In this document: positions 5,022 through 39,477 of the stretch, piece after piece | How the letters are laid out: each line of letters starts with the position of its first letter | How positions within the stretch are numbered: the stretch's first letter is position 1 | Virus record (IMG/VR): IMGVR_UViG_2537561977_000014 | Length of the DNA: 41,015 bases | Reading direction: 5' to 3' (one strand) | Source: a virus | Lineage: Duplodnaviria > Heunggongvirae > Uroviricota > Caudoviricetes | Position numbers and translations under genes: made by a program | The notes under the pieces: generated by a model | Seen by the model: only the letters and a program-made list of their open reading frames with translations | The model's database searches: none | What the model was told of the DNA's origin: nothing

Positions 5022-5309
5022 TTAAAGTTCGTGTGCCATCTTGTCTTTTTCGGCACAAGCTGCACTGCAATATTTTCGTTTCTTTCTGGCAATCATGTTT
5101 CCATGCATATAAATAAGCTCGCCAGTAAAAGCTTTTTCAGGTAAAAACTGTTTATTGCAGAGATGGTAATCACATTGTATTAAATCCGGGTCACCTTTTT
5201 GCTGGAGAATTTTTCTGATTCTCCACAGCCATTTTTTAATCCCGGTATGACTGATGGTCTGCCTGAGGGCAGGTGTAAAACAATAATCAAGCATGGGGTT
5301 CATATCCAT
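5022..5309 (-). CDS. Cys-rich small protein (95 aa), putative zinc-finger
   Basis: Cys pairs CDYHLC and CSAAC; basic residues; ORF in operon orientation. Confidence 0.45.
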   Translation of the reverse strand: MDMNPMLDYCFTPALRQTISHTGIKKWLWRIRKILQQKGDPDLIQCDYHLCNKQFLPEKAFTGELIYMHGNMIARKKRKYCSAACAEKDKMAHEL

Positions 5310-5348: not shown

Positions 5349-5872
5349 TCATGTTTTAATTGCGCCCCGGTTTACAAGAGTCCAGCCCTGTTTTTCCAGA
5401 TAAAACCGGAAAGTCTCCAGGGTACAGACCAGTGCGCCATCAGGAACGGTTTCGGTGAATTCGACATTGCCGAATTTGTCGAAGTGAACAACCAGAGTGC
5501 GACCATCACCCGGAATCATCTTGTCAGCAGGTGGGGTGTTATTCTGGCGCAGTTCGGCCTCCATGCGGTCGAACTCAGCAATGTAGGCTTCTTTGAATGC
5601 GGCGGCTTTTTGCCAGTGAAGCCCATCACCAGGAAAACGAAGCCGTTTTTGGTGATTTGGTACATTGGGCGTTTTTCGCCTTTGGTGTCGGTGTAGGTGA
5701 CCGACACAAAATTGTGTTCGTTAAAATTTGATGAGCAGTCTAAATTGCGAATTTTATCCAGCACACGTTCGTGGCGTTTGCCGAAGAACTCCGCAATAGC
5801 AACAGACGTAGTGACAGCGCGACCATTTTCGATGGTTACGTCAGGGTGAGAAAGGGCAGGGATAGTAGCCAT
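5349..5872 (-). pseudogene. rha: Phage regulatory protein Rha family, frameshifted
   Basis: N-terminal frame ..AIAEFFGKRHERVLDKIRNL..PMYQITKNGFVFLVMGFTGKK then nonsense; C-terminal homology (MEAELRQ..) resumes in another frame (ORF 5349-5564); frames are reconciled by one extra A in the A5 run (plus-strand TTTTT at 5587-5591). Confidence 0.65.
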
Positions 5873-6140
5873 TTTAGTGGCCTCCTTAACTGTTTTAGTC
5901 TGCGATTACCAGTTAGTAGCTGGTGATCGGGTGTCAACTAGAGCCAGTTAAGAAGCTCCGGGCATATTCCCCTTACGGGTATTGTATTACGCCTCTCCAC
6001 CCGATCTTTGTACGGATGTGCCGTATTTCAGGCATAAAAAGCCGCAAGGCTATCGGGTGCGGATGACCGCTTAACTGTTTCTAGTGCGATCATCTTGCAA
6101 CAATGCAGGTTGCTTTGTCAATATCCCGGATATCAGAAAG

Positions 6141-6190: not shown

Positions 6191-6511
6191 CTAAACTCTG
6201 ATCAATCGTCTGAACAGTAACTGTTTAATATCCTGACGTTGGGAAAGAATCACGTGTGCAGTGATAATATCCTCCTCGACAGAGTACAGCACTCTGTAGC
6301 CTTCTGGTGTGTTGCACTCTCTGTATTTAGCCACGCCAAGCTTGAGCAACTCCGGGCATAACTGACATCCGGACGGGAATGCAGTAACTCTTGTTTCAAA
6401 TCGCTCAAGAATTTCTGCTATTACAGGGCGTGGGTCAATGTCGTTACTCCGGAGATGGTCGGCAATTTGCTCAAGGCTTGTTCTGGCGGTAAGTGTGTAT
6501 TCAACCTGCAT
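6191..6511 (-). CDS. Type II toxin, RelE/ParE superfamily
   Basis: ~106 aa with C-terminal ..EGYRVLYSVEEDIITAHVILSQRQD.. signature; immediately downstream of a Phd/YefM-like ORF. Confidence 0.7.
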   Translation of the reverse strand: MQVEYTLTARTSLEQIADHLRSNDIDPRPVIAEILERFETRVTAFPSGCQLCPELLKLGVAKYRECNTPEGYRVLYSVEEDIITAHVILSQRQDIKQLLFRRLIRV

Positions 6512-6532
6512 AGTTAACCTTAGTTGTTAAAG

Positions 6533-6751
6533 CTATCCAGCAACTGTGCTTTGAAAACACGCGACTTCAGACTTGTCGTTTTCTGAAATAGTGAGAAGTT
6601 TCAGTAACGCAATAGCGTTCTCGCGTTCCTGTTGCTGCTCATAGGATTCAATTACGTATGCAGGAACACCATTCTGCGTGACAAGAATGGGTTCCGCCAG
6701 GTCCAGTGAGGCTGCGTTTTTCTTGATGTAGCTGATAGTTTCTATTTTCAT
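6533..6751 (-). CDS. Type II antitoxin, Phd/YefM-like
   Basis: 72 aa; ..PILVTQNGVPAYVIESYEQQQE.. resembles Phd/YefM; 21 nt upstream of the toxin gene. Confidence 0.65.
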   Translation of the reverse strand: MKIETISYIKKNAASLDLAEPILVTQNGVPAYVIESYEQQQERENAIALLKLLTISENDKSEVACFQSTVAG

Positions 6752-7153
6752 ATGGGTGTTCCTTTTTTCATTGGGAGTTATAATTTAGTCTGAATTTAGT
6801 TTTCTCGCAAGTGGCGGAAGCCGCCAGTTTGGTTTGTTCAAAAAGTCACATCCCGACCCTGCGTTCCGGTTCTGCGGATATATCAGGGCATTCGGCGGCA
6901 CCCCGAATTGTGGTTTACGTGACAGCCCGGTTCATATTGTTAAAGAGCGGCGGATTTCAGGTGTGGAAATCCCCTGCACGAATAACGGTTAATTCGCGCA
7001 TAATTAATTAAATAAATTTTGTTGATGCGGTGCCTGGTGCCTCCAGGTGACGTTAACCAGTTAACAATTAACGCCGGAATAAGGGATTTTCCTTACTGTT
7101 TTAACTGTTCCGCGTGCGCTCAGCCGCATTCACCGCATCACAAAATTCACTTT

Positions 7154-7212
7154 AAAAAGGGCGGCAGAGCAAAACTGATGCCGCCAAAAGTTTCATCGCC
7201 AACAACTCAATC
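7154..7212 (-). ncRNA. dicF: DicF-like small RNA candidate (Qin-type cell-division inhibitor sRNA) with intrinsic terminator
   Basis: Minus-strand ..UUUGGCGGCAUCAGUUUUGCUCUGCCGCCCUUUUU: 7-bp GC stem plus U-run; resembles remembered E. coli DicF core; lies downstream of dicA and the ydfA-B-C-position ORFs as in Qin. Confidence 0.45.
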
Positions 7213-7515
7213 TGGAGATGTTGTGGCGGGTTGTCACTTAATCGTATGGTCAACCTGACAACCCGGTGGACATTTGCGAGGAACGGAGAAACCCCGCCAT
7301 ACTTACCGCCGCGCCATTTCGCGGATTGCCACAACCGGAAGCGCACGGTCGGCGAAAATTTAACGACAGGCTATCTATGACCAGCTACCTCGCCGTGCGC
7401 TTTCGTGTTGTGTGCCTGCTTTTAACCACGTCAGGCGAGGTGGTTCCTGTTATTCCCCAACAACAAGAAATTTGTATAATCTGAATACCCCAACAATAAG
7501 AAGAGTGAGCAAGTG

Positions 7516-7911
7516 ATGTTTGATCTATCATTAGCGATGTCAGCTCTCAAAGAGACTGCATCAATGTTAAAATTATTCAATGAAGCAAAAACTCAGGCTG
7601 AGGTTGATCGCGCTGTGTCTGAAATAAACTCTAAGTTGTCAAGCATTCAGCTTGAATATTTGTCTCTCATTGATGAGCTGACAATCTCTAAAAGCAATGA
7701 GGCTGCGCTCAAAGCAAAACTCACGGAGATAGAAAAGTTTAAGTTCCAAAGTGAAGACTGCGAACCTCGCCAATTGATTACTGGAACGATTGTGTATGCC
7801 AGACAGTGCAATACTAGCTCTGGCAAGATTACCATGTATTTTTGTCCAGAATGTTTTGCGAAGAGAGCAATATCTATATTGCAACCTTTCCCTTATCGAG
7901 GAAGGCGATAA
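7516..7911 (+). CDS. Hypothetical protein: N-terminal coiled coil plus C-terminal Cys4 zinc-ribbon-like motif; AT-rich moron on the opposite strand to flanking genes
   Basis: ORF of 131 codons; Cys pattern C-x14-C...CPEC; TATAAT at 7475-7480 flanked by direct repeats CCCCAACAA(C/T)AAG; visibly lower GC than neighbours. Confidence 0.55.
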   Translation: MFDLSLAMSALKETASMLKLFNEAKTQAEVDRAVSEINSKLSSIQLEYLSLIDELTISKSNEAALKAKLTEIEKFKFQSEDCEPRQLITGTIVYARQCNTSSGKITMYFCPECFAKRAISILQPFPYRGRR

Positions 7912-8101
7912 TATACGAAAACTCAATGTCCCTCCTGTAAAAATGAGTATCTCATGGACTACAATTTCAATAATGATTTTTGAGTCAAGGTATTCAGATT
8001 TTTAAAGAACATGCCGGATACTCACCCGTGTCCGGCGCACGCACTCCACCTCACCCGTGGAGAACTCCTTAATTACCAACCTTGGCTTCGTTGGTTAGCC
8101 A

Positions 8102-8320
8102 TTAACGCTGGTATGTAATCATTCTGGCAATGCTTAATGCCGCTGCTTTTTCCAGCCTGGTGATATCCTGCTCCTGAGCGGACAGATTTTCGGCCTCCTT
8201 AGCCCGGGCTTCATTGGCCCACTTCAGGTCCTGCGCAGCCTGAATTTTCTGGTGCATCCACTCATAAAGTTCATCATCGGTATAGTCTGGCGCGATGATG
8301 ACGGGGTCACGTTTCTGCAT
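8102..8320 (-). CDS. Small phage protein (72 aa) in the YdfC position of a Qin-like dicA operon
   Basis: ORF; position between the YdfB-position ORF and the DicF-like RNA. Confidence 0.5.
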   Translation of the reverse strand: MQKRDPVIIAPDYTDDELYEWMHQKIQAAQDLKWANEARAKEAENLSAQEQDITRLEKAAALSIARMITYQR

Positions 8321-8349
8321 ACCGATTCCTCGCAGTGCTGTTTCGCTTA

Positions 8350-8478
8350 TCAGCCGTTAGATTTTGCCGAACTGGAAAGCGCCTGTTTAAACTCACTGAA
8401 GCTGAGAGCTTCTTCGCCTTCGGCAAGGCCTTCGAAGTATTCTTCGTAAGCCTTTTTCATGATTGTGTCGAAATCCAT
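8350..8478 (-). CDS. Small protein (42 aa), YdfB-position ORF
   Basis: ATG at 8478 to stop at 8350 gives MDFDTIMKKAYEEYFEGLAEGEEALSFSEFKQALSSSAKSNG; size and position match Qin ydfB; below the ORF-track cutoff. Confidence 0.4.
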   Translation of the reverse strand: MDFDTIMKKAYEEYFEGLAEGEEALSFSEFKQALSSSAKSNG

Positions 8479-8479
8479 A

Positions 8480-8689
8480 TTACTCACCTGAGTTTCTTTC
8501 CAGCCAGCGACGCGCGCCAGATTCGGTTTTAAACGTTTTGCTTTTGGTATACGTCATCGCGGTGAACGTGCCGTCCTGGTTGGGGAACACGCCGTACACC
8601 AGAGATTCGTTGTTGCCAAGATCGATAGTATTCATGTTGACCCCATTTCCCCTTAACGCCGGGGTAGCGGAACTGTTTGCTGAGAACAC
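8480..8689 (-). CDS. Small phage protein (69 aa), YdfA-position ORF
   Basis: ORF downstream of dicA on the same strand. Confidence 0.5.
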   Translation of the reverse strand: MFSANSSATPALRGNGVNMNTIDLGNNESLVYGVFPNQDGTFTAMTYTKSKTFKTESGARRWLERNSGE

Positions 8690-8716
8690 CGTGCGGTGTC
8701 TTGATGAATGAAATTT

Positions 8717-8765
8717 AGAATAACCTAAGGTGTGCGGTCAAGATTTTTATGTAGAAAACCTAAGT
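8717..8765. promoter_or_regulatory. Operator-like direct repeats (TAGAAnAACCTAAG x2) between dicA and the downstream operon
   Basis: AACCTAAG at 8723-8730 and 8758-8765; same CTAAGG/CCTTAG half-site as the dicA-dicC intergenic palindrome. Confidence 0.4.
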
Positions 8766-8836
8766 TTTTTGATGTAAAAAACACAAGTGTTTGAAAGTTT
8801 GTGCTTTTTATTACAGGGTGTGGAGAAAAAAGGGGA

Positions 8837-9244
8837 TTATTTGTTTGCGCTTCTTTTGCGAGCTTTGAGTAGTTCTTCAAAAAGTTTGTTGAAATTTTCA
8901 ACTCGAGCACGCATCTCTGACAACAGGGCCTTTTGCTCTGACTCAGGCAGTGCGTCGAACAGTTGAAGTAACTCTTTTTGATCTTCTGTCAGAATGGCTG
9001 GCTGATTATCCGGGATCGGTTCGCCTGGTTGTTTATCTTCATCCCCAAAAAGAAGCCAAGTCGGTGAGCACTGAAGCGCTTGGCTCAGTGCGAATAATCT
9101 TTTCCCCGCCGGCTGTGTTTCATCTCTTTCCCATTGAGAAATTGTTACGTGAGCCACTTTGACCAGCTTACCTAATGCGGCCTGAGACAGTTTTAATTTT
9201 TTACGCCTATGTAAGAGGCGAGCACCGAAGGTTTCGTTTTTCAT
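8837..9244 (-). CDS. dicA: Prophage repressor, DicA-like (HTH_XRE)
   Basis: 135 aa; ..QAALGKLVKVAHVTISQWERDETQPAGKRLFALSQALQCSPTWLLFGDEDKQP..MRARVENFNKLFEELLKARKR closely resembles E. coli DicA; divergent from a DicC-like gene. Confidence 0.85.
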   Translation of the reverse strand: MKNETFGARLLHRRKKLKLSQAALGKLVKVAHVTISQWERDETQPAGKRLFALSQALQCSPTWLLFGDEDKQPGEPIPDNQPAILTEDQKELLQLFDALPESEQKALLSEMRARVENFNKLFEELLKARKRSANK

Positions 9245-9264
9245 ATTAGGGAATTCTAATTTTT

Positions 9265-9311
9265 CTTGACTTAGGTTTCTCTACGATCTAGTTTCCTTAG
9301 GAAAATCTAAG
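9265..9311 (+). promoter_or_regulatory. Divergent promoter/operator region between dicA and dicC
   Basis: TTGACT at 9265-9270; palindrome CCTTAGGAAAATCTAAGG at 9294-9311 overlapping the RBS of dicC. Confidence 0.4.
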
Positions 9312-9320
9312 GAGCTCGAT

Positions 9321-9548
9321 ATGTTGAAAATTGATGCTATAGCGTTTTTTGGCAGCAAAACAAAGCTTGCCAATGCCGCAGGAGTTAGGCTGGCAAGCAT
9401 TGCTGCATGGGGGGAACTGGTTCCTGAAGGTCGCGCGATGCGCCTGCAAGAGGCATCTGGCGGGGAACTTCAGTACGACCCCAAAGTTTATGACGAATAT
9501 CGTAAGGCAAAACGACCTGGGAAGGTGATTCATGAAAATCAGGCATGA
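9321..9548 (+). CDS. dicC: Cro-like regulator, DicC-like
   Basis: 75 aa; MLKIDAIAFFGSKTKLANAAGVRLASIAAWGELVPEGRAMRLQEASGGELQYDPKVYDEYRK resembles E. coli DicC. Confidence 0.8.
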   Translation: MLKIDAIAFFGSKTKLANAAGVRLASIAAWGELVPEGRAMRLQEASGGELQYDPKVYDEYRKAKRPGKVIHENQA

Positions 9549-9954
9549 GCACATCGAATCAGTGCTGTTAGCCCTGGCAGCCGAAAAAGGGCAGGCGTGG
9601 GTCGCTAACGCAATTACTGAAGAATATCTGCGGCAGGGGGGCGGCGAATTGTCTCTGGTACCAGGCAAGGACTGGAACAATCAGCAGAATATCTATCACC
9701 GTTGGTTGAAAGGTGAAACGAAAGCGCAAAGGGAAAAAATTCAGAAACTGATCCCTGCGGTTCTGGCAATTCTTCCGCGTGAGCTGCGTCACCGACTCTG
9801 TATCTTCGATACCCTGGAACGCCGTGCATTACTGGCGGCGCAGGAAGCGTTGAGTACGGCAATTGATGCGCATGATGATGCTGTCCAGGCCGTTTACCGG
9901 AAAGCACATTTCAGCGGTGGTGGGTCGCCCGGCGATTCTGTCGTAGTGCATTGA
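9532..9954 (+). CDS. Early regulatory protein (140 aa), YdaT-like position
   Basis: ORF overlapping the dicC stop; size and position as in Rac ydaT. Confidence 0.5.
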   Translation: MKIRHEHIESVLLALAAEKGQAWVANAITEEYLRQGGGELSLVPGKDWNNQQNIYHRWLKGETKAQREKIQKLIPAVLAILPRELRHRLCIFDTLERRALLAAQEALSTAIDAHDDAVQAVYRKAHFSGGGSPGDSVVVH

Positions 9955-9998
9955 TTGAAATTAATCGTGCCGGATTGTTTTGTTCGGTATCAGTTAAA

Positions 9999-10417
9999 TG
10001 TAACGCTGCGAGCGTTACAAGGTGAAAACAAATGGCTTCAAACTGGATAAAGCTCGAGGTTATTACGCCGGATAAGCCGGAAATATTCAGGCTTGCTGAG
10101 ATTCTGAATATTGATCCAGATGCCGCATTAGGGAAGGTTATTCGCTTCTGGGCATGGGCGGATCAACAAATGATAGACGGTAATGCAGATTGTAACGCTC
10201 GCGGCGTTACAAAAAGTGCAATAGATCGCATCACTTTTATGTCTGGTTTTGCTGATGCGTTAATTCAGGTTGGATGGCTGGTCGAAAATGACGGTGGGCT
10301 TTCTCTACCTAACTTTGAACGTCATAACGGAAAAAGCTCTAAAAAACGGGCGGTTACAAACGAGCGAGTAACAAAAATACGCGAACTGAAACGAAAAGGT
10401 AACGCTGCCAGCGTTAC
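9999..10417. repeat. Three copies of a 21-bp palindrome (T/G)GTAACGCT-N3-5-AGCGTTACA at 9999-10019, 10191-10211 and 10397-10417
   Basis: Read directly; first copy just upstream of the replication gene, other two inside its coding sequence. Confidence 0.6.
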
Positions 10418-13252: not shown

Positions 13253-13479
13253 TTTTATGGGGCACCTTTCTGATTGATTTCATATTGGCGAGGTAAGTAG
13301 AATGACTGCGGGTGCTTGAGGCTATCTGCTTCAGGCATGAACACCAAAAGGCAGATAGAGAAAAGCCCCAGTTAACATTACGCGTCCGGCAAGACGCTTA
13401 ACATTAATCTGAGGCCAATTTCATGCTTTGCACATGTAGGTTAGCCTCTTACATGCCGAAAGGCAAGGAGAAGCAGGCT

Positions 13480-13635
13480 ATGAAGCAGCAAAAGGCGATG
13501 TTAATCGCCCTGATCGTCATCTGTTTAACCGTCATAGTGACGGCACTGGTAACGAGGAAAGACCTCTGTGAGGTACGAATCCGAACCGGCCAGACGGAGG
13601 TCGCTGTCTTCGTAGACTACGAATCCAGGAAGTAA
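13480..13635 (+). CDS. hok: Hok/Gef-family type I toxin (HokD/RelF-like)
   Basis: MKQQKAMLIALIVICLTVIVTALVTRKDLCEVRIRTGQTEVAVF.. matches the Hok family; GC-rich fold-back hairpins and terminator in 13640-13760. Confidence 0.8.
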   Translation: MKQQKAMLIALIVICLTVIVTALVTRKDLCEVRIRTGQTEVAVFVDYESRK

Positions 13636-15839: not shown

Positions 15840-15916
15840 GGCCCTTTAGCTCAGTTGGTCAGAGCGAGCGACTCATAATCGCCAGGTCGCTGGTTCAAGT
15901 CCAGCAAGGGCCACCA
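15840..15916 (+). tRNA. tRNA with CAT anticodon, ileX/ileZ-like (tRNA-Ile2, or Met by anticodon)
   Basis: Cloverleaf folded by hand: acceptor GGCCCTT/AAGGGCC, anticodon loop CTCATAA, T-loop TTCAAGT, 3' CCA. Confidence 0.85.
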
Positions 15917-15917
15917 A

Positions 15918-15994
15918 CCACCACTAGCTCATCCGGATAGAGCATCAACCTTCTAAGTTGACGGTGCGAGGTTCGAGTCCTCGGTGGTGGGCCA
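15918..15994 (+). tRNA. tRNA-Arg (TCT)
   Basis: Acceptor CCACCAC/GTGGTGG, anticodon stem TCAAC/GTTGA, loop CTTCTAA, T-loop TTCGAGT, CCA. Confidence 0.85.
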
Positions 15995-15996
15995 GC

Positions 15997-16072
<76 letters not shown>

Positions 16073-16075
16073 TAT

Positions 16076-16150
<75 letters not shown>

Positions 16151-39461: not shown

Positions 39462-39477
39462 CTGTAAAAAACGATAC
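39462..39477 (-). promoter_or_regulatory. MxiE-box-like motif with downstream TATAAT (39437-39442) in the ipaH promoter region
   Basis: Minus-strand GTATCGTTTTTTACAG versus remembered consensus GTATCGTTTTTTTANAG; ~120 nt upstream of the ipaH ATG; TATAAT ~20 nt downstream of the box. Confidence 0.55.

Follow-up and report, generated by a model that had tools for sequence, protein, structure and literature searches.

The repressor region and its operators

The locus is a prophage repressor region of the ordinary DicA/DicC type, located in a 41,015-nucleotide stretch of viral DNA that was analysed at its full length and is hereafter called the window. A dicA-like repressor gene (8837–9244, minus strand) encodes a 135-residue protein with an N-terminal helix-turn-helix (Pfam HTH_3), scoring 237.3 bits over residues 1–135 against NCBIfam NF007257 (curated cut-off 101) and sharing 62% identity with K-12 DicA. 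Divergent from it, a dicC-like gene (9321–9548, plus strand) encodes a Cro-type regulator of 75 residues (Pfam P22_Cro), with 158.3 bits against NCBIfam NF007282 (curated cut-off 130) and 75% identity to K-12 DicC. With both regulators above the curated cut-offs, and with operators and the ydfABC genes present, the original prediction was correct in reading this as an immunity region. It had also placed a palindrome between the two genes, and we find it there as CCTTAGGAAAATCTAAGG at 9295–9312.

The related repeats that had been noticed near dicA are specific to the regulatory sequences. The motif AACCTAAG occurs exactly three times in the 41 kb (8722–8729 and 8757–8764 on the plus strand, 9270–9277 on the minus strand; 0.77 expected), and the pattern TTAG-N6-CTAA has three exact matches (at 8715, 9246 and 9297; 0.36 expected), a count reached in 0 of 100 shuffles. 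All copies of both lie inside two regulatory regions. The first is an OR-like operator cluster in the dicA–dicC spacer (9246–9310), recognized from motif statistics and comparison with K-12, with sites at 9246–9259, 9271–9284 (one mismatch) and 9297–9310. This spacer also holds a putative PR-like promoter, read by eye from the sequence with no tool match, in which TTGACT (9266–9271) and TAGTTT (9289–9294) are separated by 17 nucleotides. The second is a PL-like promoter of a leftward operon (8712–8763, minus strand), identified by a promoter scan and motif searches, with TTGACC at 8741–8736, an 18-nucleotide spacer and TAAATT at 8717–8712. It is flanked and overlapped by the operator TTAGAATAACCTAA (8715–8728) and a half-degenerate site (8750–8763). 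A DicA-type repressor would bind the TTAG-N6-CTAA operators, three of them between dicA and dicC and one or two further ones overlapping the PL-like promoter, and would thereby silence both dicC and the leftward operon.

The leftward operon and a conserved leader

Three small minus-strand open reading frames, previously assigned to ydfA, ydfB and ydfC by position, prove by their identity to the K-12 proteins to be those genes: ydfA (8480–8635; 51 residues, 96% identical; Pfam DUF1391, 98.9 bits), ydfB (8350–8478; 42 residues, 98% identical; phrog_2061, and annotated ydfB in the near-identical locus L001) and ydfC (8102–8320; 72 residues, 90% identical; phrog_1744). A GC-rich hairpin further along the operon had been described as following them directly; about 900 bp intervene, occupied by a plus-strand gene and a conserved leader.

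The plus-strand gene (7513–7911), which the original prediction had overlooked, lies between ydfC and the hairpin and belongs to the phrog_1244 family (E=1e-29), encoding a protein with a coiled coil and a CxxC zinc ribbon. It is intact, at 155 residues, in L001 and in two further loci (L005 and L006); in the window, a +T and a −A indel create a stop that truncates it to 132 residues. The protein has no match in Pfam, NCBIfam or PADLOC, and a large protein search returned only two matches.

Upstream of the hairpin, a non-coding leader (7225–7440, minus strand) stands out in the conservation profile and by RNAalifold, with no match to an Rfam family. We identified in it a predicted long-range helix between AGCGCACGG and CCGUGCGCU (about 7401–7393 with 7348–7340), with compensatory changes at 7 of its 13 pairs across 81 unique sequences (RNAalifold). 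The G–U pairs of this helix favour an RNA made from the minus strand. A plus-strand open reading frame at 7266–7484 is annotated as hypothetical in a relative and has no PHROG match. On loss of DicA, transcription from the PL-like promoter would cross ydfA, ydfB, ydfC and the structured leader to reach the GC-rich hairpin and its U-run; the promoter scan found no independent minus-strand promoter upstream of the hairpin RNA.

A short allele at the DicF position

The hairpin (7154–7206, minus strand) is a short allele at the position occupied by DicF or KilS elsewhere, as seen from a sub-threshold Rfam DicF score and from alignments with K-12 dicF, Rac kilS and kil-type loci. It is made up of an altered 5′ arm, a 7-bp stem, a 12-nucleotide loop and a U5 tail. 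The GC stem and U-run are as originally described, with GGCGGCA pairing with UGCCGCC (7185–7179 with 7166–7160) ahead of five U (7158–7154), so that the element shares with DicF a 3′ Rho-independent terminator hairpin with a U-tail. Its fold is computed at −13.7 to −15.1 kcal/mol (centroid −13.7), a stability no better than that of shuffles (z = −0.25).

DicF is an expressed, Hfq-dependent RNA of about 53 nucleotides that causes filamentation. The window block is collinear with the K-12 ydfC–dicF–dicB interval, with flanks 80–100% identical on both sides of the hairpin, and departs from it in the loop, where there is a deletion, in the 5′ arm, which is rewritten, and at the dicB ATG, where the collinearity breaks off. 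The deletion takes out 11 nucleotides of the DicF loop (ACUCCGUGACU), and the DicF 5′ seed UUUCUGGUGACG has its counterpart in GUUGUUGGCGAUGAAAC, which differs by substitutions and a 5-nucleotide insertion. On the upstream side the position matches K-12 in ydfABC, leader and flanks; on the downstream side dicB is absent from the window.

A covariance-model search for DicF, the check on which the original prediction had staked its claim, gives no match at the Rfam gathering score of 48 bits (RF00039). Run permissively on 2.5 kb, it returns 27.9 bits (E=0.0023) in an alignment that skips 11 positions of the model, compared with 76.7 bits for K-12 dicF and 77 for the locus L002. A generic GC-rich terminator resembling DicF by chance would agree with this low score and with a fold no more stable than shuffles, but the collinear flanks, and a stem base and tail identical to those of DicF, rule such a chance likeness out, and the probability left to it is vanishingly small. 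The claim of a DicF-like sequence is upheld as homology to dicF by position and flanks, beyond chance, but not as membership of the Rfam DicF family.

Replacement of the division-inhibitor gene

Downstream of the hairpin lies a conserved spacer (6988–7157, minus strand), which in other prophages is the 5′ UTR of dicB or kilR, according to alignments and a sub-threshold match to STnc100 (RF02076; 38.9 bits, under the gathering score of 47). It is intact and about 90–100% conserved down to about 7011, and homology to the dicB and kil loci stops at about 7011–7000, the would-be start codon of dicB. Beyond it, a Phd/YefM antitoxin gene (6533–6751, minus strand; Pfam PF02604) and a ParE toxin gene (6191–6511, minus strand; PF05016), both annotated likewise in L001, form an intact module (6191–6751) in place of dicB or kil. 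The sequence beyond the hairpin had been thought degraded; instead, an intact spacer leads into intact genes, and the DNA has been replaced. No DicB homologue exists anywhere in the window, as the lack of an evident DicB-like open reading frame had suggested, and there is no homologue of KilR or kil anywhere in it either. The lineage of the window thus appears to have swapped its downstream division-inhibitor gene for a Phd/ParE module.

Predicted pairing with ftsZ

In DicF, a segment of the 3′ region, UUUUACUCCGUGACUGCUCUGCC, pairs with the ftsZ ribosome-binding site, with its CUC required (dicF9) and the G of CCGUG contributing to ftsZ repression (dicF23), and the 5′ seed altered in dicF3 is needed for xylR and pykA (PMC5069750). 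The 11-nucleotide deletion in the window removes both the CUC mutated in dicF9 and the G changed in dicF23, so that inhibition of ftsZ, and toxicity, cannot be assumed. We also considered plain removal of the ftsZ site by the deletion, and rejected it because the junction sequence recreates an ftsZ-pairing site. The junction, UUUU followed by GCUCUG, restores an xCUCxG at the same offset as ACUCCG of DicF, and for this reason AGUUUUGCUCUG, located mostly in the loop, is predicted to pair with the ftsZ Shine–Dalgarno region CGGAGAGAAACU at 11 of 12 positions. The hybrid energy with the Shine–Dalgarno region is −10.6 kcal/mol for the window allele and −12.2 kcal/mol for DicF. The 3′ strand, GCUCUGCCGCCC, retains the predicted pairing of DicF with ftsZ at about −29 to −17. 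Some repression of ftsZ may therefore persist.

Corrected for accessibility, in a local scan that serves as a relative comparison among four related hairpins, the best interaction with ftsZ is −5.6 kcal/mol for the window allele, −9.1 to −13.4 kcal/mol for canonical DicF and about −2.7 kcal/mol for KilS or kil-type hairpins. The ftsZ energy tests are low-powered, true DicF beating only 86.5% of shuffled targets, and cofolding with target shuffles fails to set even genuine DicF apart from the background (shuffle fraction 0.135); RNAduplex on full-length sequences gives unrealistically long duplexes. The suggested check of pairing against ftsZ hence has a divided outcome: the predicted pairing persists, but it is reduced relative to DicF.

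The original prediction's own reading was that of a functional DicF orthologue, in which the shortened RNA would be made, would block ftsZ translation through its loop and 3′ strand and would be toxic when derepressed. The hairpin is indeed the positional homologue of dicF, with terminator and U-tail intact, it keeps the complementarity to the Shine–Dalgarno region and the pairing upstream of it, and its predicted interaction with ftsZ exceeds that of KilS and kil-type hairpins. However, its score falls well short of the Rfam DicF threshold (27.9 bits against 48), the positions mutated in dicF9 and dicF23 are missing, and the 5′ seed that xylR and pykA require (dicF3) is altered. Furthermore, the Shine–Dalgarno and upstream segments pair simultaneously in canonical DicF, whereas GCUCUG of the window can serve only one of them, and the allele is confined to loci that likewise lack dicB or kil, as fits decay of a division-inhibition module. 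We therefore regard a functional orthologue as unlikely.

The element at 7154–7206 is better described as an intrinsic terminator that may also form the 3′ end of a small RNA. The region as a whole probably comprises the genetic switch of a mosaic lambdoid prophage together with its leftward early operon, with the hairpin a terminator or attenuator and not a bona fide DicF. The hairpin would then be the form taken here by a conserved terminator/sRNA locus, whose well-known alleles are DicF in Qin and KilS in Rac, and this lineage would have lost 11 nucleotides of the DicF loop and acquired a different 5′ arm. Most likely it would act in termination or attenuation and, at most, yield a short RNA with weakened pairing to ftsZ. 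As a standard lambdoid immunity region, in which the division-inhibition module (DicF loop and dicB) appears to have decayed and been replaced, the window is itself of little import. What it offers is a natural deletion allele in which exactly the DicF nucleotides whose importance for ftsZ control was established by mutagenesis are gone and a look-alike anti-Shine–Dalgarno sequence is recreated, and hence an inexpensive way to gauge the extent of pairing that DicF requires.

A possible allelic series across prophages

Across about 115 lambdoid loci, the base of the hairpin is conserved and the loops vary, with compensatory changes in the stem, in what appears from the alignments to be one terminator hairpin with interchangeable loops. 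A DicF-type hairpin lies upstream of dicB in 57 of 60 cases and a KilS-type hairpin upstream of kil in 14 of 15; the window type lies upstream of neither in all five of its occurrences. DicF and KilS prove to be allelic forms of a single conserved hairpin locus, with the loop type tracking the downstream killer gene. No paper naming both RNAs was found in the literature searched.

The window allele itself is rare. An exact-pattern scan found no copy of it among 185,579 species representatives, each species being covered by one genome, and it is present in 2 of 5,426 complete E. coli genomes and in two identical IMG/VR contigs, all of one lineage. E. coli VL40 (NZ_CM177011.1) is a lysogen that carries it. 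Because it is confined to so narrow a lineage, its conservation is uninformative on function.

The hairpin could also be a distinct, KilS-like trans-acting sRNA, one interchangeable cassette with its own 5′ arm, loop and targets unrelated to ftsZ. At least ten loop or arm alleles, chimeras included, share the hairpin base and flanks, two of them, DicF and KilS, have been verified by experiment as sRNAs that associate with Hfq (PMC5069750; PMC8175672), and the window allele occurs in two downstream contexts, that of the window and L001 and that of L007. Yet the allele is rare and resembles a simple deletion derivative, and the promoter scan gives it no minus-strand promoter of its own; we consider it very unlikely. 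Broader, and in our view rather improbable, is the idea that one prophage sRNA locus comes in interchangeable versions, namely DicF, KilS, the window allele and no fewer than eight further loop or arm variants. If so, each cassette would be fixed between two conserved elements, a structured leader and an STnc100-like 5′ UTR, and would be linked to a host-killing gene downstream that differs between cassettes (dicB, kil or another), and the short allele of the window would be no remnant but a working sRNA with targets of its own.

Comparison with known systems

The window shares with K-12 Qin the divergent DicA/DicC pair and ydfABC, the layout of the PL-like promoter and its operators (with TTGACC), the conserved leader, the hairpin base (GGCGG..CCGCCC-U5) and the downstream spacer. 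The dicA–dicC spacer of Qin has identical TTAG-N6-CTAA half-sites and the same TTGACT −35, but the operator flanks and spacers differ, so that immunity specificity probably differs as well. The window lacks 11 nucleotides of the DicF loop and has a 5′ arm rewritten with a 5-nucleotide insertion; it has Phd/ParE instead of dicB and ydfD, and a plus-strand phrog_1244 gene between ydfC and the hairpin, where K-12 has none. RalA, YdaE and YdaT near the switch region of the window are Rac-like, as is RecE in L001, and the label 'Qin-like' holds only for dicA, dicC and ydfABC.

The spacer aligns with STnc100/PasD over the whole model, including the conserved hairpins. Similarly weak matches occur in K-12 Qin (34.4 bits) and other loci, all at 33.6–42.2 bits and below 47; as opposed to STnc100, the spacer is elsewhere the 5′ UTR of dicB or kilR, with no known separate sRNA.

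With the cI–OR–cro, OL–PL, sieB and kil arrangement of lambda and P22, the window shares its overall logic: one repressor is served by several palindromic operators at two divergent early promoters, the PL operon encloses an exclusion-type gene that has a promoter of its own, and a host-killing function lies downstream. Unlike these phages, it has no N gene or recognizable nutL beside PL, its operator sequence differs and its repressor is of the short DicA type.

The Rac prophage of E. coli K-12, where the KilS sRNA and the kilR locus have been described (Bar et al. 2021, PMC8175672), has the same architecture of repressor, DUF1391 gene, small open reading frame(s), opposite-strand gene, hairpin-terminated sRNA and conserved spacer, with sieB in the place of the phrog_1244 gene. 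KilS (b4833), for which we found no Rfam model, is a 98-nucleotide RNA upstream of kilR that ends at a hairpin homologous to that of the window (alignment; PMC8175672). The 5′ strand of this hairpin, GGCGGCAUCAG, is identical in the two, and position, tail and downstream spacer are also common. KilS has a longer upper stem (CAUCAG/CUGAUG), and its 5′ arm, loop and 3′ strand are different; Rac has RacR as its repressor rather than DicA, and the kilR gene that follows the hairpin in Rac is absent from the window. KilS of Rac, rather than DicF, may be the closest functional analogue of the window hairpin.

Hairpin at the dicF position

By alignment, the short hairpin element at 7154–7206 (minus strand), originally likened to DicF, is truly homologous to the dicF locus, yet it lies outside the DicF family as Rfam defines it. 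The window is collinear with ydfC–dicF–dicB of the K-12 Qin prophage, with long identical stretches on either side of the element. As the original prediction had it, the element ends in a 7-bp GC stem and a U-run, here GGCGGCA/UGCCGCC with a 12-nt loop and U5, folding at about −14 kcal/mol. Relative to K-12 dicF, the loop lacks ACUCCGUGACU, the 5′ arm has GUUGUUGGCGAUGAAAC where K-12 has UUUCUGGUGACG, and homology stops at the position of the dicB start codon (~7011–7000). The covariance-model search proposed to support the assignment gave no DicF match in the window at Rfam gathering thresholds. In permissive mode the model aligns to 7159–7195 (minus strand) with 27.9 bits (E=0.0023) and 11 loop positions deleted, against a gathering score of 48 and scores of 76.7 for K-12 dicF and 77 for a canonical relative. 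Most likely the element serves as an intrinsic terminator or attenuator where the ydfABC leader ends.

An ftsZ-inhibiting role is doubtful. DicF pairs with ftsZ through its 3′ region and with xylR/pykA through its 5′ end (PMC5069750). Two mutations made with mutagenic oligos, dicF9 (CUC to GAG inside ACUCCG), which abolishes ftsZ repression, and dicF23 (the G of CCGUG) (PMC5069750), both fall within the 11 nt deleted in the window allele. The deletion junction UUUU/GCUCUG mimics UUUU/ACUCCG of DicF, and 11 of 12 positions can pair between AGUUUUGCUCUG and ftsZ CGGAGAGAAACU, with a hybrid energy of −10.6 kcal/mol versus −12.2 for DicF. A second segment, GCUCUGCCGCCC, retains the base pairs that DicF forms with ftsZ around −29 to −17; the two segments share nucleotides and so cannot pair simultaneously. 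By a method of low power, the best accessibility-corrected energy is −5.6 kcal/mol for the window allele; DicF gives −9.1 to −13.4, and hairpins of the KilS or kil type about −2.7. The pairing is predicted to be weakened, not abolished.

Surrounding immunity region

The immunity region is ordinary, and its original reading was correct. In the ORF listing of 6800–10200, a dicA-like gene (8837–9244, minus strand; 135 amino acids) and a dicC-like gene (9321–9548, plus strand; 75 amino acids) diverge around the CCTTAGG...CTAAGG palindrome at 9295–9312; they score 237.3 and 158.3 bits against the NCBIfam DicA and DicC models (cut-offs 101 and 130), with 62% and 75% identity to their K-12 counterparts. 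A YdaT-family gene (9532–9954) follows dicC. The three small minus-strand frames past dicA are, in order, YdfA (DUF1391; 8480–8635), YdfB (8350–8478) and YdfC (8102–8320), 96%, 98% and 90% identical to K-12.

The related repeats reported downstream of dicA also hold: all 3 copies of AACCTAAG in 41 kb lie inside the two regulatory regions, as do the 3 exact window matches to the underlying motif TTAG-N6-CTAA (8715, 9246 and 9297; 0.36 expected, and 3 reached in 0 of 100 shuffles). Further operator-like sites occur at 9271 (one mismatch) and 8750–8763 (half-degenerate). The K-12 dicA–dicC and dicA–ydfA spacers carry the same half-sites, GTTAGttatgaCTAAC and TTAGccatgaCTAA, and the same −35 boxes, TTGACT and TTGACC. 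This shared layout, together with a PL-like promoter found by promoter scan between and overlapping the left sites (TTGACC-18-TAAATT, 8741..8712, minus strand), points to a classical OR/OL arrangement. We infer that DicA binds the TTAG-N6-CTAA sites.

The ~900-bp gap from ydfC to the hairpin holds a plus-strand gene and a conserved leader, both overlooked originally. The gene (phrog_1244, a family with a coiled coil and two CxxC pairs; 7513–7911) sits at the position of sieB in Rac; its protein has no match in Pfam, NCBIfam or PADLOC. Indels (+T and −A, ~7893 and ~7910) shorten it to 132 amino acids and remove the second CxxC pair, and it is intact at 155 amino acids in three otherwise identical relatives (L001, L005 and L006). 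Nearby, a TATAAT (7475–7480) lies between direct repeats CCCCAACAA(C/T)AAGAA. The non-coding leader (7225–7440, minus strand), upstream of the hairpin, matches no Rfam family. It contains a long-range helix, AGCGCACGG/CCGUGCGCU (~7401–7393 with 7348–7340), with compensatory changes across 81 unique sequences (AU/GC 65:12, GC/UA 61:16, GC/UG 57:13), the G-U pairs favouring a minus-strand RNA.

DNA downstream of the hairpin

The DNA beyond the hairpin, first taken as degraded, is a replacement: intact Phd/YefM (6533–6751) and ParE (6191–6511) genes stand there. As foreseen, there is no DicB-like frame; tblastn finds neither DicB nor KilR homologues anywhere in the window. In E. coli RMDEC465 (L007, 2614–2802, minus strand), isrK and C4 antisense-RNA matches and a full-length Rha gene, not the Phd/ParE pair, come after the same short hairpin. 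These different modules indicate that the DNA past the hairpin was exchanged more than once.

Several other features were observed. The spacer at 6988–7157 (minus strand), elsewhere the 5′ UTR of dicB or kilR, is kept though the gene once behind it is gone, and gives a sub-threshold Rfam STnc100 match (38.9 versus 47 bits), a weak match that K-12 Qin shows too. An exact rrn-type boxA 12-mer, GCTCTTTAACAA, lies at 6937–6948 on the minus, leftward strand, upstream of the Phd/ParE genes and directly after a hairpin GGATTTC-N7-GAAATCC; it is a possible antitermination site. Four of the other fetched loci also have the exact 12-mer; in the 2 whose positions were checked, the hairpin spacer lies ~1.1 kb downstream of it. 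An above-threshold sRNA-Xcc1 match (5917–6006, minus strand; 67.4 bits, gathering score 53) lies between the ParE gene and a truncated Rha-family gene (5516–5872), left of which is a YdaE homologue (5025–5180, minus strand; 56% identical). Plus-strand RNA genes over Rfam thresholds, together occupying 1079–1257, 13310–13485, 39470–39652 and 15840–16147, comprise the RalA antitoxin, in a Rac-like left arm, sok, from a module of hok/sok type, CssrB and a four-tRNA cluster. A frame like YdfD, the Qin lysis protein, lies near the right end (40782–40937, minus strand; 36% identical, E=3e-8).

DicF and KilS as alleles of one locus

The window allele is rare and restricted to one lineage. It occurs in E. 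coli VL40 (100% identical), in RMDEC465 (98%, with the other downstream module) and in two mutually identical IMG/VR contigs, and in 0 species-representative genomes. The prophage lineage carrying it has also lost dicB/kil.

A 22-mer of the spacer retrieved 120 viral contigs; these and further loci gave ~115 usable loci, drawn from the window element, L003, L008–L010 and L011–L130. Hairpin base and tail are conserved among them. The upper stem and loop exist in at least 10 versions, chimeras included, and compensatory changes occur in the stem. Which version is present goes with the gene that follows: 57 of the 60 DicF-type loci lie ahead of dicB, 14 of the 15 KilS-type loci ahead of kil, and all 5 window-type loci ahead of neither.

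The modest novelty lies in the window allele and in the allelic relationship between DicF and KilS, two RNAs that no paper in the searchable literature names together. The Rac prophage of K-12 has the same architecture as the window region, namely racR, ydaG, ydaF (DUF1391), opposite-strand sieB, the annotated sRNA kilS and then kilR. KilS, confirmed by Northern blot and RIL-seq (PMC8175672), has the 3′ end GGCGGCAUCAG...CUGAUGUCCGCCCUUUUU, and the spacer behind it is near-identical to those of Qin and the window. DicF of Qin and KilS of Rac represent two alleles of a single, conserved terminator-hairpin locus.
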